Below, piece after piece: positions 7,225-33,625 of a stretch of 64,000 nt of DNA (positions are counted from its first letter, which is position 1; every line of letters starts with the position of its first letter). The stretch is from Candidatus Aenigmatarchaeota archaeon (GTDB taxonomy: Archaea > Aenigmatarchaeota > Aenigmatarchaeia > Aenigmatarchaeales > DAIDAN01). The notes under the pieces are model-generated. The model was not told where the DNA came from. It did no database searches and saw nothing but the letters and a program-made list of their open reading frames with translations. Position numbers and translations under genes: made by a program. The DNA is taken from positions 1,135-65,134 of the forward strand of contig JBAQNA010000022.1 of assembly GCA_049303335.1 (NCBI GenBank), given 5' to 3'.

Positions 7225-7740
7225 ATGAAATCGGATAAACCCAAAATCTACGAGCGGCATTACGAAGACAGCGCGCTGATTCCCGCAGGCGCTGCAGAGA
7301 TATTCGCCTTTATAGATGATCATGCCCGCGTCATGTCGCATATGAACAAGCCGTCGTGGATGATGGGCGGCGGGCGAGGTGACATTTCGTTTGACGCCGG
7401 ACACGGCCAAAAGGTCGGTTCCCATATTCGCATGAGCGGCAAGGTCTTTGGGATTACTGTTTTTGTTGATGAAGTTATCACGCGCTATGAGCCGCCTCGC
7501 ATAAAAATCTGGGAGACGGTCGGGATGCCAAACCTTCTGGTCGTTGGTCATTACCGCATGAAAGTCGGGATAGAGCCGCAGGAGGATGAGTCGTTACTGC
7601 GCTTGTCCATAGACTATAATTTGCCGAAGACAAATGCTTGGCTGGGAAAACTGTTCGGCAGGTATTACGCGAAATGGTGCGTACAGCGTGTAATCAAAGA
7701 CACGCGCAGTTATTTTATAAAAAAACAAAAATTAAATTAA
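7225..7740 (+). CDS. SRPBCC (START/polyketide-cyclase-like) family protein
   Basis: About 170 aa with the alternating beta-strand pattern typical of SRPBCC. First ATG at 7225; the ORF track begins with TTG at 7216. Confidence 0.4.
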
Positions 7741-7741
7741 A

Positions 7742-10282
7742 ATGATTATTATGAAAGACCCTGTTTGCGGAATGGATGTTGGCGAGAAGGCGGTAAAGCT
7801 CGTGAAAGGCGGAAAGGCATATTATTTCTGCAGCAACAGTTGCAGGGACAAATTCTTTGGGAAGGGAAAAGATGATGAAAAAATAAATTCCAAATCAAGC
7901 CATAATGATTCCCAAACAAATACGCAAACAAAAAAATTCTCCTGCAACATAACGGGAATGCACTGCGCGAGTTGTGCCCAGAATATTGAAAAGAGACTTA
8001 AGGGTGAAGAAGGCGTGGCGAGCGCGAGCGTGAGCTATTCCGCAGGCAGGGCTTCCGCTGAGTTCGATCCGGAAAAGACGAGCGAGCAAAAGCTTGCCGG
8101 AACGATAAACAGGATGGGTTACAAGGCTTTTTTTGCGGCTCCCGAATCCGGGGGGTTTGCGACAGACCCTGTCTGCGGCATGCGCGTGAGCAAGGCGAAC
8201 TCCATAAAAAAACAGTTTGACGGCAGGATACATTATTTCTGCAGCGAGGAATGCGTGAGAAAGTTCGAGTCCCCGGAGGAGGAATTAAAGAGCATGAAAA
8301 AGCGGGTCATGATAGCCCTTTCAGGAGTGCTGCTGCTTGCAGCGCTTCGTGTAATAGCCATGTTAACTCTTGCTGCGGGGGCTACTCTGATATCATGGGC
8401 GCCAATCCCTTCGCTTCCCTGGTTTACATGGGGATATTGGCTGTTCATACTCACAACACCGATACAGTTCATAGGGGGTTGGACATTCTACAAGGGCGCC
8501 TATAACGCGCTCAAAAACAGGAGCCTGAACATGGACTTTCTTATTGCAATGGGCACTTTGACGGCGTGGACATTCAGCTCGTTCGTGCTTTTCTTCCCCG
8601 GAGTCCTGCCTGTGAAAGAGAGGGATGTTTATTTTGAAGTTTCAGCCGTAATTATAGCGTTCGTGCTTCTTGGAAAATTCATGGAGGACTACATAAAAAA
8701 ACGCACATCCGCGGCGGTGAGAAAGCTTCTTGACCTGCGCCCGAAGACAGCGCGCGTGATGCGCGAGGGAAAAGAGGTTGAGATACTTGCAGAGGAAATC
8801 ATGACAGGCGAAATCGTTGTTGTCCGCCCAGGCGAGAAAATTCCGGTGGATGGCTTGGTGATAGAAGGTGAAAGCTCCGTTGACCAGTCCGTGGTAACAG
8901 GCGAAAGCGTGCCCGTGCTAAAGAAAAAAGGCGACGAGGTAATCGGCGCAACTTTGAACAAGCATGGCATGCTGAAGTTCAAGGCAACAAAGGTCGGCTC
9001 GGAAACTACGCTAATGCAGATAGTTAAAATGGTTGAAGAGGCGCAGGCGTCGAGCGCGCCGATACAGCGGTTGGCTGACAAAGTCTCATCCTATTTTGTG
9101 CCTGCAGTAATCGCGATTGCTCTCGCTTCGTTTTTCGGATGGTGGCTTATCGGCGGAAACTTTACAATGGCAATACTTGCGTTTGTGGCAGTCCTTATAA
9201 TTTCCTGTCCCTGCGCCCTTGGAATAGCAACTCCTGCCGCGCTCATGGTGGGCGTCGGAAAAGGCGCAGAAGCAGGCATACTGATACGCGGCGGGGAATA
9301 TCTTGAGCGGGCGCACAAATTGCAGACAGTTGTTTTCGACAAGACCGGAACGCTTACGAAAGGAAAGCCCGTTCTCACTGATGTGGTTGCCTATAATGTT
9401 TCTGAAAAGGGAGTCCTGCACCTTGCCGCTATCGCCGAGAAAAATTCGGAACATCCTTTGGCGGAGGCGATAGTAAACGGCGCGAAAGAAAAGGGAATAA
9501 AGATAGAGGAGGCGCAGCATTTCAAGGCAATTCCGGGAATGGGAATAGAGGCAAAGTTCGGAAAGATAGAAATCCTTCTTGGAAACAGGAAACTGATGGC
9601 TGACAAAAAAATAAACGCGGAAAAAATCACAGGTGATATGGAAAAGCTTGAGGGTGAGGGAAAGACCGTGATGATTCTCGCGGCGGACAATGTGATTTTG
9701 GGGCTTGTGGCTGTTGCCGACACGCTCAAGGAGCATTCTGCCGAGGCAGTGAAGGAACTTGGCGCAATCGGTATAGAGTCCGTGATGCTCACGGGCGATA
9801 ACGAGCGGACTGCAAATGCGATAGCTGAGCAGGTTGGCATAAAGCGGGTGATAGCAAATGTTCTCCCGCAGGAGAAGCTTGAAGTCATAAAAAAACTCCA
9901 AGCTGAAGGAAAGGTTGTTGCAATGGTCGGCGACGGGATAAACGACGCGCCAGCTCTTGCGCAGGCGGACATCGGGATAGCCATAGGCTCCGGAAGCGAT
10001 GTGGCAAAGGAGACCGGCGGGATAATCCTGATAAAGGACGATTTGAGGGATGTTGTAAAAGGGATAAAGCTCAGCAGGCTGACAATGAAAAAAATAAAGC
10101 AGAATCTTTTTTGGGCGCTCGCTTACAACACCGCGGCGATACCGCTTGCGGCTTTCGGTTTCTTGAATCCGATAATAGCCGCGGCCGCGATGGCGATGAG
10201 CTCGCTTACGGTTGTGATAAATTCCGCGCTCCTGAAAAGGATTAAAATGGAAAAACGGGAGCTTGCAGCGCCGGCGGCATAG
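7742..10282 (+). CDS. copA: copper-translocating P1B-type ATPase CopA with N-terminal TRASH-HMA-TRASH metal-binding domains
   Basis: Two TRASH motifs (DPVCGM...YYFCSNSC and DPVCGM...HYFCSEEC), an HMA motif GMHCASCA, the CPC ion motif ISCPCALG, phosphorylation site DKTGTLT, the HP motif and GDGINDAP. Confidence 0.95.
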
Positions 10283-16194: not shown

Positions 16195-16497
16195 TCATTA
16201 TCACTGTTTTCAGATGTGAAGGCTGACGTATTTGCCTTATGAACCTCAAGTCCAGATTTCCGTTTCACAAGCGGCTTATATGCCTTTTGCGAATTCTCTA
16301 ATACTGAAATGCCACCTGCCAAAAAACAAAACGGGGTGATGAACAAGATATGGCGGAAAAGATTCCGCCAAAAACAACTCGCAGCTTCGTTCCAAGTCCC
16401 TCTTCACGGAGGGACTCTAATCGCTTAATTTTCTTGCTTCTTCAAAGTATTTAAAAATTAATTCTGACGCCCAGAAAGCCATAAAAATAAAAAAAAT

Positions 16498-16571
16498 TGG
16501 TGCGCCGGACGGGATTTGAACCCGTGTCGCGAGCTTGGCAAGCTCGTATCCTGCCACTAGACTACCAGCGC
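16498..16571 (-). tRNA. tRNA-Gly (GCC), CCA encoded
   Basis: The minus strand reads GCGCUGG UA GUCUAGUGGCAGGAUACGAGCUUGCCAAGCUCG...GGGUUCAAAUCCCGUCCGGCGCACCA. The anticodon loop is UUGCCAA and the T-loop is canonical. Confidence 0.85.
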
Positions 16572-16642
16572 ATTGCTAGATAAATTATCTATGAAACTTA
16601 AATAAATACGCATTTGAATTTGAAATCTTTTTATTCCGGAAA

Positions 16643-19627: not shown

Positions 19628-19809
19628 GCGGAGATAGCCAATCACCCTTTTTTGCTGGCGCAAAAAAGCGCGACCGGAAAAGGGCGGACAAAGCCAGGTC
19701 TAAGGCGCAAGGCTTAGGAACAGGTTTCCTTTTCGTGCGAAGCTCAGAGACCTGAATTGAGACACCTTGTGGGTTAGTCCCTTCGTCAGTTCAAATCTGA
19801 CTCTCCGCA
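19628..19809 (+). tRNA. tRNA-like gene (about 180 nt) with internal insertions; encoded CCA; identity unresolved
   Basis: The 5' GCGGAGA pairs perfectly with 3' TCTCCGC, followed by A-CCA. A canonical T-arm (cgtcag ttcaaat ctgac) is present and a long variable-arm-like hairpin suggests Leu/Ser type. It contains the hairpin cccttttttgctggcgcaaaaaagcgcg, which is also present in RNase P RNA. Confidence 0.4.
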
Positions 19810-19869
19810 CCAATTGATTTTGCAGGAACATCTTATGCTTTTTATATTCTTTGCGTTGCATTATATTTT

Positions 19870-20143
19870 GCAGAAGATGGCCGCGGTGGTGTAACGGCAT
19901 CGGGTGAAAACCCTGCACGTTAAAGCACAAGAGCCTGTGGAAAACCTTTTCTTTTTAAAAAGAAAAGGTTTATCAAAAGAAAACAAAATAGAAAAAAGGC
20001 TTTATCATGCACAAAAAACTGAAAGTTTTTTGGCACGCCGAAAATCTTTCAGATTTTCGTGCGAAAAAGAAACAGTATTGTTTCGGAATATTACAGAAAG
20101 CTCTTAGACCGAGTTCGAATCTCGGCCGTGGCCCCACTCACAT
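19870..20143 (+). tRNA. intron-containing tRNA-like gene (about 180-nt insertion), CCA encoded; identity unresolved
   Basis: The 5' GCCGCGG pairs with 3' CCGTGGC (one G-U), then C-CCA. T-arm ccgag-ttcgaat-ctcgg; the 5' part resembles an archaeal D-arm. The insert is the purine-rich hairpin type. Its 3' exon lies 14 nt upstream of cmk. Confidence 0.45.
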
Positions 20144-21676: not shown

Positions 21677-23848
<2,172 letters not shown>

Positions 23849-24899: not shown

Positions 24900-27800
24900 T
24901 CAGGTCTGTGGGATAAGAATTGAAACAATAAGCCGTATGGCGGATGGCTTGGCTCTGAACAACGATGAAGGCCGCAGCAAACTGCGATAAGCACGGGGTA
25001 GGCGTATGCAGCCTTCGAACCCGTGATAGCCTAATGCGACTTCGCGCCTGCTTCGGCAGGCATTCGCGGAAGAGATTGCATCAAGCCTGCGAAAGTGAAT
25101 CCGCCGGATTAAAGCATTTAAGTAAGCGGAAGAAGAGAAAGAAAATCGATTCCGTTAGTAAGGGCGACTGAAAGCGGAACAGGACAAACCGAACCCGCCC
25201 GGAAACGGAGCGGGAATGTGGAGTTTGGACTCGGGCACTTCTTAACTTTCCAGCCCAAAGTTCCCTGGAATGGGACGCGACAAAGCGTGACAGCCGCGTA
25301 GGGGGACGGGAGAAAGAAGATTCCGGGTATCCAGAGTATCGTTCTTCGGATATAGAGCGAGAAGGCGGGTGCCATCAGTACCCAATCCTAAATATGTCCA
25401 GAGTCCGATAGCGCAATAGTAAGGTGACTGAAAGCTGAAAAGTACTCTTCACCGAGGGTGAAAAGAACCTGAAACCATACGGCGATAGTCTTTTATGGCA
25501 TGGAAGGTGCGCCTGCGAATGAACGCACCGCGAGGTGCAAGTAAGAGCGGGCGCTTACAGTGTCATAGAATTCGTTTCGAAACACGAGGCAGGGAGTTTG
25601 TTTCTGTGGCGAGGTTAATCCGGTTAGCGGAGAAGCCAAAGCGAAAGCAATAGGCGCGTAGCCGCGCAAGCGGCGTGGCGCGAGGTCTGAAAGGGCCTGC
25701 AGTCACAGGGACAAGACCCGAAACCGCTTGATCTAACCCTGGATAGGGCGAAGCGCGACGAAAGTTGCGTGGAGGCCCGGTACCGATGTTGGGCGCAACC
25801 ACTCGGGTGATTTGGGGTTAGGGGTGAAAAGCCAATCGAAAGCGGTAATATCTGGTTCCTTCCGAAATGCATATAGTGCAGCCTCATCCGAGGCAGCTGG
25901 CGGGGTAAAGCACTGATTGGGGAGTTAAGGAGCGAAAGTTCCGGCTTTCCTGTCAAACTCATAATCCGTTAGCGCCGTAGACGATGGGAGTGAGGGCACT
26001 GGGGTAAGCTCGGTGTCCGAAAGGGGAACAACCCAGCCTAAGGTTAAGGTCCCTAAATCTTAGCTAAGTCGCGAAAGTGGTGCTGGTTCAAAAACAGGAG
26101 GGGCGTAGGCTTAGAAGCAGCCATCGCATAATCAACGCGTAAAGCCCTTTTCTTTTTTGGTAACGAACTTGTAAAAAAGAAAAGCGCTTGCGGAAAAGAA
26201 AAACAAAAAAAAAGAAAAATCGGAAATAAAAACAAATAAAATCTTTTCCGGAAAGCGCGAAAGAAAAAGGCTCGCGAAACAGCGGACCTCTCGAGAATCA
26301 GTGCGCTGAAAATGGACGGGAGTAAGTTAAGTACCGATACCTTAGATATCGAAAGATATAGCGTAGGAAGGCGCTCCGTGCGGGCAGAAGCATCTGCGAG
26401 AGCGGGTGTGGACCGCATGGAGATGAAAATCCTGCCGGTAGTAGCAGCAACAGTTAGGTGAGAATCCTAATCGTCTAAGAGGCAAGGTTTTCCCGGCAAC
26501 GTTTTTCGGCCGGGAGTTAGTCGATCCTAAGTCCAATCTTAACTGAACTGGACGAAAGGGAAGCAGGTTAATACTCCTGCACCACGGGCATACGCGCGGT
26601 AACGCAAGTCCGAGCGCGGACGCTTCCGGACAAGCCGGCGCAAGTTAAGCGTTTAAATCCGGGGAGTTTCGTCATGAAGAGAACCGGATGAAGGCGTTAA
26701 CAGCTCTGCTGTATTGCGGAGTCCGGCCCATTTCAGGAGCCCATGAAAACGCGCGCGGAAAGAATTGCTCGTGTCCGTACCAAGAACCAACACAGGTGCC
26801 CTACGCTGAGAAAGCGAAGACGTCTCGGGATACACCATTTTAGGGAACTCGGCAAATTAGCTCCGTACCTTCGGTATAAGGAGTGCCTGGCCAGGGATTG
26901 GCCAGGTTTCAATAGCATGGGAGGAGCGACTGTTTAACAAAAACGCAGCCGACTGCTAAAGAGAAATCTTGCGTACAGTCGGTGAGGCCTGCCCAGTGCG
27001 AGTGTGTTAAAACCGGTTTCAACCGGTCCAAGCCCTCGTAAACGGCGGCGGTAACTCTGACCGTCTTAACGTCGGTCATTTTAGTCGCGAAAGCGGCGAT
27101 GAAAAAAATCAATCAATGCCGATTGAGATATAGGTAGCGTAAATGTTAGGTCCTAAATCCGAAATTATCAAATCGGGAATTTTCAGAATTGGAATTAACA
27201 GTCGGAGATGGACAGAGTTTTGCTCAACAGAAGCCACGAAAGCGGAAACGACTGTGTTATTAGAATCTCTTTTTTAAAAGAGACCTAACAGCGCATTCCC
27301 TTGTCGATTAATTGTCGACCCGCATGAATGGCTTAACGACTCCTCTACTGTCCCAAGATGGAACCCGGCGAACCTGCTATTGTGGTGAATAGGCCACAGA
27401 CCCTCAGAGGGAAGAGAAGACCCCGTGGAGCTCTGCGGCAGCCTGTCGTTGCTGTGCGGTCGCGGTCTCATAGCGTAGGCAGGAGCCGTTAAGCGTTGGA
27501 TTTCGGTCCAACGATAGGCGACAATGTAACACTGCCATCTCGTGACTGTATGGCTAACCTCGTTTTCGGGGAACACCGATTGGTAGGCCGCTCGGCTGGG
27601 GCGACGCGAACAAGTAGGAAATTATACCATTAAAATCCATTACCTGTTTGTCGCGCCTTATGTACGCCCTTGAGAGGAAAAAAGCTTTTTTCTTTTGAAA
27701 GAAAAAAGCTTTATCAAAAAAGAAACATTATACCTTATATCAAGGGCGCCCAAAGTTCTGCTCATTCCGGTCAGAAATCGGAAGTAGAGTGTAAGCGCAA

Positions 27801-29190
27801 AAGCAGGACTGACTGGATTCCGCACATCAAGGAATCCAGAGACGAAAGTCTGGGCTAACGATACGCCGAGTGTTCCTGATGGATTTCGGTGACTTCAGAA
27901 AAGCTACCCCGGGGATACGGGTTGGCGCGGAGCAAAGCGGGTCTTCTTGGAAAAAAATATTAATCTTAAATAGATTTATCGCTAGTTGTAAGATGGTGAA
28001 CAATATGTGTAAAGAATGCGGTGTAACTCTAAATGAATATGAAGAAGCATTAAGAACTATTGAAAGAGTAAAACCTAATTTATTGGAGATGAGCGATACT
28101 GCTCGCGCGGCAGATACAAATTTGCAATTATTGCAAAAACAACATATGAGTCATATCACAACAAAAGATAATTTTTCTTTTTTCACATTTTTCCAGGAAG
28201 GCCCGAAGCCCGTACCAACCCGCCAAATAACCGAGTCGTGGCGGGCGAGAGCTCCTAATTCTCACATCTCTAGATGTATTTCACAGAGAGATGGCAATGA
28301 GCAAATCGACTTTTTGAAATGGGTGATTTTCCGGCTGTTTAACGATGAGCGCATATTCGATTTAGCGAGTTAAACGAATTTTGAAGTAACTGATTTATTT
28401 TTAGAAGTTTTCAGATTTAGAAATACAAGAAATAAGGCAGTTATAGAGAAAATGATAGAAATAATTATGTTAGCCGGAATCCTATTTCAAGACGAGAACC
28501 CGCGCGTTGCTACCTCGCTGTCGGCTCCCCCTCTCCTGGTCGTGCAGTAAGCCCTTTTCTGTATCGAGCGTGCAAAAAGCGCTTGCGGAAAAGGTCCTGA
28601 ATGCGACCAAGGGTACAGGTGTTCACTGGTTAAAAGGGGACGTTAGCTGGGTTCAGAACGTCGTGATTCGTTGTGGGTTTTCATTTTACATGCGAAAGCA
28701 ATATTTCCGGTAAGGCGTGAGCATAATGACTTTACCGTCCCAAAATGAGCGGCACTAGCCGCGATGAATTTAGGAGTAGCTTATGAGTGCTGCCAATTTC
28801 CAGGCAACACGCTTTACCTTTTCAAACTTTCCTGGAATTCAGATGCGATTATCCACATCGAACGACATAGACAGTTCGGTCTTTATCTTCCGAGGGTGCA
28901 AAACCTGACCCGAAGGATGCCCAAGTACGAAAGGAACGTGCATCCGTGGCCACTGGTTGACCGGTTATCGTAATGGTAACGCCGGGCAGCTACGCCATAA
29001 TCGTTAACCGCTGAAGGCATGACAGCTGGAGCTAAATGTTCGGCTGTGCCGAACTAAGCGGGAAACGATCGGGAAAAATAGGTGGATGCTGACGGATAGA
29101 TCATCCGTTTAATGGGGCAGTGGTGTACGCACGAAGCCAAAAGCGACGTGTTCAGCCTTCTGCTCCCAATAGCGCAGTTTCAATTCTCTC
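24900..29190 (+). rRNA. 23S rRNA, about 4.3 kb (ends approximate), with multiple insertions
   Basis: Begins GGCGGATGGCTTGGCTC..GATGAAGG..GCGATAAGC. Conserved blocks recognised: GGAAAGACCCCGTGGAGCT, the CCCCGGGGATA region, GCTGGGTTCAGAACGTCGTGA and CGAACTAAGCGGGAAAC. Insertions at about 26140-26290, 27080-27300, 27660-27740 and 27935-28480. Confidence 0.8.
27993..28373 (+). CDS. ORF inside the 23S domain-V insertion (possible degenerate intron-encoded protein)
   Basis: A roughly 550-nt low-GC insert interrupts the 23S right after the conserved CCCCGGGGATA block. Its longest frame begins MVNNMCKECGVTLNEYEEALRT. No LAGLIDADG motif was recognised. Confidence 0.25.
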   Translation: MVNNMCKECGVTLNEYEEALRTIERVKPNLLEMSDTARAADTNLQLLQKQHMSHITTKDNFSFFTFFQEGPKPVPTRQITESWRARAPNSHISRCISQRDGNEQIDFLKWVIFRLFNDERIFDLAS

Positions 29191-29420
29191 AAAATGAGCT
29201 TTTCTTTTTACGCACGAAAACTTCGTTTTCGGCGCCCCTAAAAAGCTTCGCTTTTTATGGGAAAAGAAAAGCTCAAGCAAAAGAAAACATTTTGAAAAAG
29301 CTTGAGCAAAAAGAAAACTCTAAAAACGACCTGACCAATCGCGCGAAAGCGCGAGTCCTTGCCTTTGCCAGTTAATTTTTTCTTTAGAATTTTCTGGGTT
29401 AGCGGTAGCTGTATAAAATA

Positions 29421-30548
29421 TTATGATGGTAGTCTTAGGTTAAAAAATCTATAGACCTTAAAAGTTAAGAAAACTATTACAAATCTTGTTATTAATTCGG
29501 CAATTTCAAATATCGGGTCTTCTAAAGGGGAGAAATATAAACTTAATAAAAATACAGGCATATAGCTTATGAAATGCGTTGCAGATAATCTTATAAAATC
29601 ATTTTTGATTCGTATTTTCAATAAATCAATAATTGCTTTTCCTAACAAAAACATAATTACTCCATTAAATAAAATACCGAATAACCAAGTATCTATGACT
29701 TCAAACTCTCCGGCAACTATTGTAACACTAATGGCATAAAATATACCCCAGAAAAACCCGAATTTTATATATTTAAGATAATTTTTAAACCAACCACTTT
29801 CTCCAACATCTTCAAAAGATGAAATCTTTCTTTCAGATGATAAATTAGATTCTAGTATGTTAAGAATCTTATCAATCTCATTTTTTTCAAGTCTAATCCT
29901 ATTTTTCTTATTCTCAATAACTTTACATAAGTCTCCTATCTTAACAATATCGGATTGCGTTTTTTCAATTTGTAAATTTGCATCAGGATTTGTAAAAACC
30001 ACAATTGTGTTAATCCAAGGCTTGAATTTTTCAGAAAATATATTTTTCTCGGAAATAAACTCTTTTAATCTTACGGCATTTCTATCTGCTTGTTTTATTG
30101 GATTTTTCAAATCTGATACGTAATACCCGCCTTTAAGATTCATCTTTTCTTGCGTCCATTTGCCATTTTCATATTTTATGTTTCCTTTATGATTCTTTGT
30201 CTCGATTACAAAAATACCATTTTTACCTATAACTATATGGTCTATATTTCCTTCTGTATTTGGTAATCTGACATCATTTAATACGAAGAAATCTTTATCC
30301 AGTTTCTTTAATTCATCTATAACAGCTTCCTCTCCTTTTGCGCCCAAATTCCATGTGATATATTTGCTAAAATAAACTAACGATATGAAGAAAAATATTA
30401 AGCCTGAAAATAATCCATATAATGCAATAGGATAGTCGGAAATTAACCCAAAAAATGCAGTCAATATCGCAAATAAAAACAAGAATAAACCACGGTTTCT
30501 ATTTAGATTGGAAAATGTTCTTGAGAATAATTCATGATTGTTTGACAT
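29421..30548 (-). CDS. membrane-anchored NERD-domain (nuclease-related) protein
   Basis: NERD signature GEEAVIDELKKL...DFFVLNDVRLP...GNIDHIVIGKNGIFVIETKNHKG; TM helices at the N- and C-terminal ends; low-GC gene. Confidence 0.65.
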   Translation of the reverse strand: MSNNHELFSRTFSNLNRNRGLFLFLFAILTAFFGLISDYPIALYGLFSGLIFFFISLVYFSKYITWNLGAKGEEAVIDELKKLDKDFFVLNDVRLPNTEGNIDHIVIGKNGIFVIETKNHKGNIKYENGKWTQEKMNLKGGYYVSDLKNPIKQADRNAVRLKEFISEKNIFSEKFKPWINTIVVFTNPDANLQIEKTQSDIVKIGDLCKVIENKKNRIRLEKNEIDKILNILESNLSSERKISSFEDVGESGWFKNYLKYIKFGFFWGIFYAISVTIVAGEFEVIDTWLFGILFNGVIMFLLGKAIIDLLKIRIKNDFIRLSATHFISYMPVFLLSLYFSPLEDPIFEIAELITRFVIVFLTFKVYRFFNLRLPS

Positions 30549-30613
30549 AATATTAAACTGTTATTCTTACTTATCAATGTAACCTTTTTATACTTCACAC
30601 GCGAACTTCTTTT

Positions 30614-30894
30614 TAATGAGTTGGAAAGACAGCTGTCGCGGCTTTTTTCCGCCGGCCCTTTTTGCTGGCGCAAAAAGCGCCGTGAGGTCAAGTTCCGTCC
30701 ACCGAAACCCCGATTCTGTCGGGGCTGCTGCCCAGTTGAAAAATGAATCGGCAGGGTGCAAGACCAAGTAGGCTGCGATGACCAAAGAGCAGCGGGTAGG
30801 TTGCTTAGACGAATGCTGTCCATGGCGGTTGAAAGAAGGTTCCGTTTGGAGCCGGACTCGCCGAACACAAGACGGGCTAATTCCAACTCATTAA
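30614..30894 (+). ncRNA. rnpB: RNase P RNA (compact, archaeal type)
   Basis: P1 helix ttaatgagttggaa / ttccaactcattaa. GGAAAG near the 5' end. GGGTAGGTTGCTTAGACGAATGCTGTCCA resembles the GGGUAGGCUGCUUGAG...AGAUGAAUGACUGUCCAC block. Contains the hairpin ccctttttgctggcgcaaaaagcgcc. The overlapping minus-strand ORFs were rejected. Confidence 0.6.
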
Positions 30895-30916
30895 TTTCTT
30901 TCAATATCTAATACAA

Positions 30917-31975
30917 TTATATTATCTGCTTCATCACAACCGTGTCGTCGGGCGCGAATGCCTTGCTCCAGATGCGAACCTCGTCGATTGTGCCGTTGAA
31001 ATAAGCTACGAAGTAACTCGCCCCAATTTTTAATGAAGCGTTTGAAGCATATAATCCCGAAGAATATGGCACAGGCGTTTTGTCAACAACGCCATTTACA
31101 TAAAGATTTATTACAGTTCCATCATAAGCCGCAATTATATTTTTCCATATATTGTCTGATATATTTGTAGTTCCTGTTATGTATTTGTCCCACGTTGTGC
31201 CTGTGGCGCTAAATCCCATTTTTGCCAATCCGCTGGAATCTATTTGCAATCCCCAACTCCTCTGATTTCCTGCTGGGAGAGCTTTATTCATAATATCTAT
31301 ATTTGATTTATTAGTTTTAACCCACACACTCACCGTAATCGCATTTGTGATATTAAGGCTCGCCGCATTCCCCGCATTAACATAATCGTTTGCGCCGTCA
31401 AATTGCAATCCTTCTCTGAACCTTCCTTCAGCCCAGCCGCTTGTCGCGTTTCCAGTCGTGTTCATGTTGGTCAATGCTCCGACATTTCCATTTCCCGAAT
31501 TGTCATAAGTTATTGCGCCAGTTCCTTCGTCAAAGTTCCACGAACCGGCAAGTCCGTCGGGATTCGGTATTATCTCGACAAGCGCCAGCGCAACCGCGGC
31601 GCCGTTTGTTATTTTCAAACTATGCTTTCCGAACGGCACCTGCCACAGTCCCGAAACATTCACAACACTCGAGTTTCCCTCCATTATCGTGTTTGTGCTC
31701 GCGTCCAGTGCGACATCATCAATCATCACAACCAGCGACTTGTTCTCAATCACCCCTTTCCCGCAATTTCTCAGCGTTATCTGGTTTCCGATTATGTTGT
31801 CAACCTGCATGCACATCGAGAGCTGTGCCGTTAACTGCGAAGCCTGCTCCGAGCCGGAAGAAGTTGTTTGCGAAGCCATTGTCGAGGAGAAAACATAGAA
31901 CACTCCAACCAGAGAAACGGTGATCATTAATAACATGACGGTGGCGATGACGGCGGAGATGGCTTTTGATTGCAT
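30917..31975 (-). CDS. archaeal type-IV-pilin-like surface protein with concanavalin-A-like (LamG) domain
   Basis: N-terminus MQSKAISAVIATVMLLMITVSL is a class III signal peptide. Thr/Ser/Asn-rich; the LamG-like C-terminus ends ...GTIDEVRIWSKA. Confidence 0.55.
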   Translation of the reverse strand: MQSKAISAVIATVMLLMITVSLVGVFYVFSSTMASQTTSSGSEQASQLTAQLSMCMQVDNIIGNQITLRNCGKGVIENKSLVVMIDDVALDASTNTIMEGNSSVVNVSGLWQVPFGKHSLKITNGAAVALALVEIIPNPDGLAGSWNFDEGTGAITYDNSGNGNVGALTNMNTTGNATSGWAEGRFREGLQFDGANDYVNAGNAASLNITNAITVSVWVKTNKSNIDIMNKALPAGNQRSWGLQIDSSGLAKMGFSATGTTWDKYITGTTNISDNIWKNIIAAYDGTVINLYVNGVVDKTPVPYSSGLYASNASLKIGASYFVAYFNGTIDEVRIWSKAFAPDDTVVMKQII

Positions 31976-32414: not shown

Positions 32415-32858
32415 TTGCATATGAGAATTTTTATAAGTTTTTCTAAAGAAGGTATAAAATATGCAGAGAAAGTAAATACTTTTTTCGAAGTAAACGGATG
32501 TAGTCCGTTTCTAGCAACAAAAAATATCGCTCCTGGAGAATTTGGGTGGATAAGAATTGGAAAAGAAATAAATAGTTCAGATTTAATTATATTTATAATC
32601 ACAGAAAGTAGTCAAAGTTCCACAAGCCAAATGTCTGAAATTTCGTTGTCTATGAATTTAGGAAAGCATATTATATCTTGTGTTAAAGATGGAATTGAGT
32701 TATCTGAACTAATTATTCTAGAAGCGCGTAATATTCTCAAGTTTGAAGATTCAAATCTAGAGTCAATATGTCATAAGATCTTATCTAATATAAACAATGG
32801 AAGATATTCTAAAGAAATAAAACCATCTTCTTCCTTACCAGAAGGTAAAGAGGTGTGA
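32415..32858 (+). CDS. TIR-domain protein (ThsB-like, stand-alone)
   Basis: RIFISFSKEG ... LIIFIITESSQSSTSQMSEISLS follows the TIR pattern (a beta-A IFISYS-like motif and a beta-C/alpha-C Ser/Glu region). 147 aa; low-GC gene. Confidence 0.6.
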   Translation: MHMRIFISFSKEGIKYAEKVNTFFEVNGCSPFLATKNIAPGEFGWIRIGKEINSSDLIIFIITESSQSSTSQMSEISLSMNLGKHIISCVKDGIELSELIILEARNILKFEDSNLESICHKILSNINNGRYSKEIKPSSSLPEGKEV

Positions 32859-33625
32859 ATATGATAGATGAAAATGAAATAAGAGAGTTTTCAGAAGCAA
32901 TTATTGAGACCTACAAGAATTTATCAATATTAAAAGAAATCAGTCAGATTATTGAATATTCTGACGGAATTAAATGTGATTTCATTCAGATAGGGGAAAG
33001 AGTATTGTTGCCTAAAGAATTCTTTAAGAAGGGCAATAATATTGATAATAGATTTTTAGGTGGTGATTTTGCTAGGTCTGTTATATGGGGTGAGGAAAAT
33101 TTCATAATTAATCAATTGACAGAGTTAGCAGAAAAAGGCAAAATACTCTCAGTTCAGATAAAAGATTTCTCTTATCCTACTATTGTTCAATATATCTTGC
33201 GTGTTGATAATCCTACTGATATATTCATACCTATAGACCTTGAACCCTATTATATGAAAGTTCATGATTGGATAAAAGAAGGAAATGCTGGATATGAAGG
33301 AAGTCAATTATATATATTTGCTGGAGAAAAAAAAATAAGAGTACATTGGTCAACAAAATATACACCTTTTGACAGTATTATCGTACTAGATAGAGATGGT
33401 GTTAAAATAGTACAAAAAAGGTTTGAAGATATAAAAATACCAAAAGAGTTTATAACTCCAATATATAGTTATAAAAAGAGTGAACCTTTTAGAATTGATT
33501 TTGCAGAATCTGATAAACCGGATCATTTTGACTGTTATATTAGAAGTGTATTCGCTATATATGAAATAGAAAAAGAATCTATTTATGTAATAAAGTTGCC
33601 TAAGGATGAAAAATCTAAAAAGTAA
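32855..33625 (+). CDS. hypothetical protein translationally coupled to the TIR gene (candidate effector/sensor)
   Basis: ATGA start/stop overlap with the TIR gene; same low-GC composition; 256 aa, no motif recognised. Confidence 0.45.
   Translation: MNMIDENEIREFSEAIIETYKNLSILKEISQIIEYSDGIKCDFIQIGERVLLPKEFFKKGNNIDNRFLGGDFARSVIWGEENFIINQLTELAEKGKILSVQIKDFSYPTIVQYILRVDNPTDIFIPIDLEPYYMKVHDWIKEGNAGYEGSQLYIFAGEKKIRVHWSTKYTPFDSIIVLDRDGVKIVQKRFEDIKIPKEFITPIYSYKKSEPFRIDFAESDKPDHFDCYIRSVFAIYEIEKESIYVIKLPKDEKSKK

Follow-up and report, generated by a model that had tools for sequence, protein, structure and literature searches.

A DNA repeat of small archaeal introns in the variable P3 helix of a compact RNase P RNA gene from Candidatus Aenigmatarchaeota

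The window analysed here is a stretch of 64,000 nucleotides from a Candidatus Aenigmatarchaeota archaeon of the DPANN group, and by homology its positions 30614-30894 on the forward strand are assigned to a real but compact archaeal RNase P RNA gene. It is 281 nt long when all 13 bp of P1 are counted, and its specificity domain is reduced. A neighbouring protein shows 100% identity to one recorded at NCBI under the name Candidatus Aenigmatarchaeota archaeon. When positions 30500-31000 were scanned permissively with Rfam, RNaseP_arch (RF00373) matched at 30616-30891 on the plus strand with 66.2 bits and an E-value of 3e-18, and model positions 1-288 are aligned end to end to the gene. This score lies below the curated Rfam gathering score of 84. 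A scan of the whole window at gathering score gave no RNase P match and just one tRNA, and permissive regional scans were therefore needed. The low score is explained by the reduced specificity domain and by insertions, not by absent homology. The related locus L120, which has a short P3, still reaches just 75.2 bits against RF00373, likewise below 84, suggesting that the RNase P RNA of this clade is truly atypical and not a false positive.

In the Rfam alignment P1, P2, P3 and P4 as well as CR-I, CR-IV and CR-V are present in order. P1 is a perfect 13-bp helix (30614-30626 with 30882-30894), P4 is predicted to be AGU.CCGUC/GACGG.GCU, and both are invariant in eight RNase P sequences. In the specificity domain approximately 45 nt stand in place of about 117 model positions, an extra insertion of approximately 40 nt precedes CR-V, and an insert of 35 nt is placed in the P3 loop. 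The block GGGUAGGUUGCUUAGACGAAUGCUGUCCA is found in the RNA, and CR-I is diverged, reading GAGGUCAAGUUCCGUCC with a 2-nt UC insertion that is absent from L121, L120, L124 and L126. A preliminary description of this DNA had proposed a compact RNase P RNA with a cleanly pairing P1, a recognizable GGGUAGG block and a diverged CR-I. All of these features were confirmed: the covariance-model search returned RF00373, albeit below the gathering score, and the assignment is supported by the significant E-value, the match to the whole model, the syntenic place of the gene in relatives and compensatory changes. Archaeal RNase P RNAs are divided into the structural types A, M and T. Like these types and RF00373, the gene has the P1-P4 core, P2 and CR-I, CR-IV and CR-V, and the whole model aligns, but it differs in its reduced specificity domain, the insertion before CR-V, the variable P3 insertion and scores of 66-75 bits within the clade.

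The related loci and contigs of Ca. Aenigmatarchaeota that were compared with the window are denoted by L-numbers. Homologues were collected from syntenic contigs found through the conserved endonuclease IV gene and from a metagenome scan with a conserved 20-mer of the RNase P core, which returned three contigs only. Eight further distinct homologues were obtained (L118, L120, L121, L123, which is partial, L124, L125, L126 and L128); L119 and L122, duplicate assemblies of L118 and L121, were left out of this count. The cores of the homologues are approximately 90-100% identical. In the alignment, P2 carries a compensatory change from GACAGC/GCUGUC to GGCGGC/GCCGUC in L126, and the hairpin after CR-I (alignment columns 134-181) shows structure-preserving changes on both sides. 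The complete architecture of RNase P did not emerge from RNAalifold on eight sequences, which recovered P1, P4 and local hairpins. In sequence the gene is mosaic: its 3' segment is identical to that of L121 and L125 (76/76 positions, compared with 63/76 for L118), whereas its middle and hairpin segments are identical to those of L118 (90/90 and 25/25) and differ from L121. Recombination between lineages has thus been active at the RNase P locus.

Upstream of the gene lies an AT-rich flank with approximately 27% GC at 29400-30600, and the upstream neighbour encodes a NERD-domain protein (Pfam E-value 4e-28), in agreement with the low-GC islands and the NERD gene on one side noted in the preliminary description. 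Two AT-rich islands (approximately 27-30% GC, 29421-30548 and 32415-33625) flank a native block of RNase P, LamG and endonuclease IV genes. One encodes a membrane protein with a NERD domain, the other a TIR-domain protein and an uncharacterized partner, and relatives carry other genes at both island positions. The islands are probably acquired defence-type genes.

P3 is the sole hypervariable part of the RNase P alignment, in relatives whose cores are near-identical. In the window, the helix with its lineage-specific extension, as delimited by the Rfam insert and the fold, spans 48 nt on the plus strand (30637-30684), compared with 22 nt in L120 and L128. The inserts of L121, L126 and L124 share both arms with the window, L118 and L125 have an unrelated P3 insert of 31 nt, and L123 has a long, branched, unrelated one. 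The lowest-energy fold of the window P3 is one continuous irregular hairpin of 48 nt (-25.1 kcal/mol, z -3.2), in which a U-run forms the apical loop and GCUGGCG-C-AAAAAG pairs with the upstream CUUUUUU-C-CGCCGGC. A local hairpin drawn earlier for this part of the RNA reaches only -14.0 kcal/mol including its basal stem.

Three further observations were made on insertions in this part of the ribozyme. The P3 inserts of L118 (gene at 9185-9468) and L125 (1898-2183) have apical loops GAA and UUC, which are reverse complements standing between identical stems, a signature of loop inversion in a DNA palindrome. In L128 (10-295) P3 is short, but the hairpin that follows has an insertion of 31 nt (UCUGAC...GUCAGA), which means that insertions are tolerated in another ribozyme loop too. 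The P3 extensions of L121 (gene at 9317-9602) and L126 (3220-3502) differ at 1 of 55 positions, although the flanking core differs far more, for example at 5 of 23 positions at the 5' end; either the P3 cassette was recently exchanged or it is under selection, as the near-identity fits recombination and would equally fit selection for function.

The 20-mer CTTTTTGCTGGCGCAAAAAG occurs exactly twice in the window when up to three mismatches are allowed, at 30658-30677 within P3 and at 19648-19667, against an expectation of 0.01, and the two copies differ solely by one extra T and one extra A. The second copy lies in a gene on the plus strand at 19628-19812 (Rfam tRNA, 30.2 bits), called a tRNA-like gene in the preliminary description. 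The locus was correctly pointed out, and the gene itself is a genuine class II tRNA-Leu(UAG) that is interrupted twice and encodes its CCA. Its acceptor stem (GCGGAGA/UCUCCGC) is perfectly paired, and a T-arm and a long variable arm are present. An insertion of 51 nt in the D-loop (19642-19692, plus strand) has the boundary GCCAA/.../GCCAGG, ambiguous by at most 2 nt in the pairwise alignment with L023. The insertion is missing in the syntenic L023 gene (approximately 80% DNA identity), and without the 51 nt the D-arm is identical to that of L023, which fixes the insertion at 19642-19692. The D-loop insertion contains a full-length copy of the repeat, CCCUUUUUUGCUGGCGCAAAAAAGCGCGACCGGAAAAGGG, at 19645-19684 on the plus strand (nhmmer, 44.9 bits, E-value 2e-12, profile positions 1-36), which folds as one hairpin with -20.1 kcal/mol and z -3.35. 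A motif scan revealed no bulge-helix-bulge that would give the junction required by L023. The second interruption is a canonical 37/38 intron of 45 nt (19719-19763, plus strand), recognized by the Rfam alignment and a relaxed bulge-helix-bulge; the homologous intron in L023 has H1 CGCAAGG/CCUUGUG, H2 CUUA/UAAG and the bulges GG/A and AU/A.

Several features of this tRNA region stand apart from the repeat. The end of the D-loop insertion, GCGGACAAAGCCA (19684-19696), is an 11/13 direct repeat of the exon start GCGGAGAUAGCCA (19628-19640), and the Rfam tRNA alignment starts at the second copy, where the acceptor stem has a C.C mismatch. Duplication of a target site, a partial duplication or an alternative 5' end could account for this. 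ARAGORN detected tRNA-Gly only, whether or not its intron mode was switched on. Another heavily interrupted tRNA lies at 19880-20137 (acceptor GGCCGCG/CGUGGCC, T-arm CCGAG-UUCGAAU-CUCGG, insertions of approximately 180 nt); it was found by neither ARAGORN nor Rfam and is conserved in L023. L023 is collinear with the window when reversed, apart from tRNA-Gly and tRNA-Leu, each of which is inverted in place relative to the flanking protein genes (16484-16612 and 19628-19815 in the window versus 7249-7376 and 4660-4785 in L023). These are two independent in situ flips of cassettes of approximately 130 bp between close relatives.

The repeat is a member of a wider family. Its bare palindrome, YTTTTTGCTGGCGCAAAAAR, was scanned in 185,579 species genomes and yielded, among the matches listed, mostly unrelated bacterial palindromes; the extended flanks are common to at least four Aenigmatarchaeota loci among the matches listed. 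A profile built from those loci recovered five full-length copies (36 profile positions, 42.9-48 bits) in the 207 kb of the window and related loci. The copies lie in the D-loop insertion of tRNA-Leu in the window, in the 530-loop insertion of the 16S rRNA of L023, in the 37/38 intron of tRNA-Gln(CUG) of L043 and of L058, and in the spacer between a DUF460 gene and an exosortase-family gene in L029. The last copy is antisense to both genes and gave no Rfam match. Outside the window the module is found in four MAG contigs representing three genomes, with at least one to two full copies per genome among the matches listed, and no copy was found in viral contigs. Thus, the repeat is confined to two places only within the window, a restriction that the preliminary description had held against its proposal; across related genomes this restriction does not hold.

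The module is 36-40 nt long and quasi-palindromic, with the consensus CCC-U5/6-GCUGGCGC-A5/6-GCGCnnGC-GG-A4/6, and it is almost invariant across genomes whose DNA is just approximately 80% identical. It occurs in both orientations, if the reverse P3 extensions of L121, L126 and L124 are included, the number of copies being few. In all four gene insertions, which are 51-59 nt long, 3-5 nt separate the 5' boundary from the start of the module, and this fixed spacing and size identify the unit as a small-intron family. Each full copy folds into a single long hairpin whose apical loop is formed by the A-run (-18 to -21 kcal/mol, z -3.3 to -4.5). The inner stem shows no double-sided covariation among the five copies, only one-sided G-U to G-C changes and mismatches, so the fold of the module rests mainly on thermodynamics. 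From its sequence contexts, the module would be best described as the core of a small-intron family moving or recombining at the DNA level.

Two side observations concern the module sequence. The lengths of the T-run and the A-run co-vary (T5/A5 or T6/A6) in five of six copies, the stretch at 30658-30677 included. This keeps the local palindrome YTTTTTGC-TGGC-GCAAAAAR perfect, whereas the lowest-energy RNA fold leaves the two runs unpaired with each other; the co-variation may reflect maintenance of a palindrome at the DNA level. Many further occurrences of the module's 3' half, AAAAGCGCUUGCGGAAAAG, were noted in the purine-rich insertions and spacers that belong to rRNA operons and immediately downstream of RNase P in relatives (window 26180-26197 and 28570-28592; L118 5946, 6185, 7167, 8306 and 9560; L121 6765; L120 175; L124 2075).

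The window also contains SSU and LSU rRNA genes of archaeal type, interrupted by numerous large insertions. In the 530 loop of the 16S rRNA an intron of 69 nt (22431-22499, plus strand) occupies the same site as the 59-nt module-carrying intron of L023. The boundaries, GGGUGCCA/...CACAU/GCCGCCGCGG, are the same in both, and the interior hairpin of the window intron differs. The L023 intron fits a strict hBHBh' motif (CGG/CCG, GUGC/GCAC, bulges CA/G and AU/G, AAGCCC/GGGCUU), and its excision restores the universal GUGCCAGCCGCCGCGG. The 530-loop insertions of the window and L023 thus resemble archaeal rRNA bulge-helix-bulge introns in their hBHBh' geometry and in the GUGCCAGCCGCCGCGG left after excision, but they are only 59-69 nt long, contain no ORF and have interiors that are swapped between close relatives for unrelated hairpin modules.

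A second hairpin family, D6, with the arrangement CUUUUCUUU-loop-AAAGAAAAG-nnnnAUCAAAAGAAA, was observed in the interrupted tRNA (19946-19982), in the 16S 530-loop intron (22436-22472), in an LSU region (27687-27723) and in the spacer after the LSU gene (29250-29286). Since D6 occurs in tRNA, 16S and LSU insertions, it is general in this genome for insertions in tRNA and rRNA genes to have interior modules in common. The LSU rRNA covers 24916-29187, reaching approximately 29187 and not 27968, where the gathering-score match ends, and its 3' part contains insertions of 569, 55, 204 and 36 nt. In the Rfam alignment the SSU rRNA (21677-23664) has insertions of 22, 279, 77 and 54 nt, the one of 77 nt corresponding to the 69-nt 530-loop intron. 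ORFs in the rRNA regions of relatives match LAGLIDADG domains.

Compared with these copies, the one in RNase P is a fragment. The module-identical stretch GCCCTTTTTGCTGGCGCAAAAAGCGC (30655-30680, plus strand, 26 nt) forms the apical loop (CCUUUUU) and the 3' strand of P3, and it is 100% identical to the 16S intron of L023 and the tRNA-Gln intron of L043. With nhmmer it covers profile positions 1-26 of 36 (29.2 bits, E-value 1.6e-7), and the local alignment score of the window P3 against the module was reached by 0 of 500 shuffles. It lacks the 3' half of the module, is preceded by 13 nt of other sequence, and does not have the layout of the full copies, a module of 36-40 nt placed 3-5 nt inside an insertion of 51-59 nt. 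The 5' arm of the P3 extension, UUUUUUCCGCCGGC (30643-30656, plus strand), is common to L121, L124 and L126 and resembles the reverse complement of the module 3' half. In the reverse orientation the P3 extensions of the window, L121, L126 and L124 all match the module with scores reached by 0 of 500 shuffles, and nhmmer found minus-strand matches to P3 in L121 (16.4 bits) and the window (13.5 bits). In the forward orientation L121, L126 and L124 match weakly. The window P3 thus matches the module both ways and is the only one with a perfect forward stretch, although the two orientations of a quasi-palindrome are not sharply separable. The P3 inserts of L118 and L123 showed no match to the module in the shuffle test. 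The preliminary description had reported a hairpin recurring almost verbatim and proposed a mobile hairpin module. The sequence sharing is real (the 20-mer found twice, 0.01 expected) and the repeat is conserved in several genes and genomes, but the common hairpin is not borne out, as the RNase P copy is a 26-nt fragment that folds differently.

We consider it probable that P3 gained an unspliced helix expansion when a DNA-level repeat of the small-intron family became fixed there, and that recombination later overwrote part of this repeat. The RNA would keep an apparently normal catalytic core (P1, P2, P4 and CR-I, CR-IV and CR-V) next to its reduced specificity domain, and its P3 would have been lengthened from approximately 8 bp to approximately 20 bp by an insertion derived from the quasi-palindromic repeat of 36-40 nt. 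In this lineage the repeat appears to be the core of bulge-helix-bulge type introns of 51-59 nt in tRNA and 16S rRNA genes, where it would fold into an extended hairpin immediately downstream of the 5' splice site and supply the intron-internal helix. A copy of the module may first have been fixed in inverted orientation in the tolerant P3 loop, a state represented by L121, L124 and L126. In the window lineage the distal half would then have been overwritten through recombination or gene conversion with a forward intron copy, creating the perfect match of 26 nt. This two-step history of inverted fixation and forward conversion would be the simplest one. Most probably the mature RNA retains the insert, which would lengthen P3 coaxially in a passive role and would act neither as a K-turn nor as a dedicated protein site. 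The sequence comparisons establish that the gene is an RNase P RNA gene of mosaic structure, that its P3 is hypervariable, and that the repeat belongs to a family with other hosts; from them we infer the DNA-level spread, the gene-conversion step and the retention in the mature RNA.

If the P3 insert were instead itself a bulge-helix-bulge intron, the mobile intron family would have a further host in RNase P RNA. Cleavage by the splicing endonuclease at 30648/30649 and 30677/30678 would release an intron at 30649-30677, and the ligase would join CGCGGCUUUUUU to CGCCGUG and leave a 6-bp P3 with a 7-nt loop UUUUUUC, which resembles the short P3 loop of L120 and L128 (UUUAUU). A relaxed motif anchored on the P3 stem can be drawn, with H1 CGCGGC/GCCGUG, H2 UUUU/AAAA, H3 CGCCGGC/GCUGGCG, the bulges UU/C and AG/C and one extra C, and just 47 of 5000 shuffled interiors (approximately 1%) allow such an anchored motif. 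L124 has a strict motif in the homologous P3 arms and L123 one anchored on the P3 stem, although much more stable hairpins compete with it in L123. Introns are extremely abundant in the lineage, the presence or absence of inserts at the P3 site and the swapping of unrelated ones mirror the 16S 530-loop intron site, and splicing endonucleases of DPANN archaea, like those of Crenarchaeota, accept relaxed motifs (PMC3239211). However, the splice-competent register requires a slipped U/A-run and is 5.3 kcal/mol worse than the lowest-energy fold (-19.8 versus -25.1 kcal/mol). The motif is not conserved in the homologous extensions of L121 and L126, where even a relaxed bulge-helix-bulge is absent, nor does the unrelated L118/L125 insert at that site contain one. 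The RNase P copy also lacks both the module 3' half and the spacing of 3-5 nt from the 5' splice site seen in every real insertion, and a limited full-text literature search revealed no intron-containing RNase P RNA gene. The precise presence or absence of the insert at the same place (22-nt P3 in L120 and L128) agrees with splicing and is equally expected for a tolerated helix expansion. The motif scans have to be read with their limits: the strict scan misses the window's own tRNA-Leu anticodon intron and is therefore too stringent, and the relaxed scan with 2-bp helices is too noisy for use alone. Bona fide introns of the lineage often have degenerate motifs (none for the tRNA-Leu D-loop insert and none that is clean for tRNA-Gln), so the failure to find a motif is weak evidence against splicing. 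On balance, splicing of the window insert appears unlikely, and it is to the same degree doubtful that the variable RNase P inserts as a group (P3 of the window, L121, L124, L118 and L123, and the next hairpin of L128) are EndA-spliced introns. From the predicted folds and motifs, retention as a helix expansion is the most likely state of the P3 insert, ahead of splicing. If they were, this lineage would possess the first RNase P RNA genes with introns, and its small introns would pass freely among tRNA, rRNA and ribozyme genes, targeting hairpin loops.

The sharing could also mark a site for a common protein, for example an L7Ae K-turn, on RNase P RNA and on pre-tRNA or excised introns. This would account for a module that is almost invariant between genomes of approximately 80% identity and for the nearly unchanged P3 extension that L121 and L126 keep despite their diverged cores. 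A K-turn consists of a canonical stem and a 3-nt bulge followed by tandem sheared G.A pairs (PMC4919917). Positions 30637-30684 contain no GA dinucleotide, and the lowest-energy fold has no 3-nt bulge; a K-turn in the P3 extension is thus ruled out on sequence, and the shared protein-binding element suggested in the preliminary description finds no K-turn signature there. The same 26 nt are, moreover, predicted to adopt different structures in the two contexts, and close relatives lack the element (L120 and L128) or carry unrelated inserts, which makes a common protein site very improbable. Still less credible is a chance or convergent likeness, without common origin, of low-complexity hairpins built of a U-run, GC-rich segments and an A-run. 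It is true that the bare palindrome is present in more than 100 unrelated bacterial contigs among the matches listed and that the window contains several other families of U/A-run hairpins. Yet the identity reaches past the palindrome (GCCC...GCGC, 26/26) and is common to Aenigmatarchaeota copies only, among the matches listed, with 0.01 occurrences expected in the window and 0 of 500 shuffles scoring as high.

The preferred history, fixation of an intron-family repeat in P3 as an unspliced helix, has a parallel in Thermoproteales. A study from 2010, as summarized in PMC4090602, describes a 'large-scale intron transposition', in which like intron sequences occur at different tRNA positions and the spread is presumed to take place at the DNA level. 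The two cases are alike in the presumed DNA-level spread and in tRNAs with multiple introns. They differ in that the present lineage is a mesophilic DPANN group, that the present family crosses RNA classes (D-loop of tRNA-Leu, 37/38 position of tRNA-Gln and 530 loop of 16S rRNA), that one copy lies between genes, and that P3 of RNase P RNA incorporates a fragment or inverted copy. The case is thus an unusual variant of the known archaeal intron transposition and not a new kind of system; what is new is the DPANN lineage, the crossing of RNA classes, the intergenic copy and the fragment or inverted copy in RNase P RNA.

MITE-like and REP-like elements are miniature palindromic repeats. The module resembles them in being short, quasi-palindromic and conserved, in occurring in both orientations and in one intergenic spacer, and in the imperfect 13-nt direct repeat that flanks one copy, that in tRNA-Leu only. 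In contrast to them, it has no consistent target-site duplication, its copy number is very low (at least one to two per genome among the matches listed), and it is strongly tied to spliced insertions of stable-RNA genes.

For genome annotation, the RNase P RNA of this clade escapes detection at the Rfam gathering score, and its heavily interrupted tRNAs are missed by standard tRNA finders, which affects both the annotation of MAGs and estimates of their completeness. For the biology of the family, archaeal intron transposition is extended from the tRNAs of Thermoproteales to tRNA, 16S rRNA, an intergenic site and RNase P RNA of a DPANN lineage. The P3 helix offers a concrete case in which an intron-derived sequence became, or sits in, a structural helix of a ribozyme, and the locus provides a tractable system for testing whether RNase P RNA genes can carry spliced introns.
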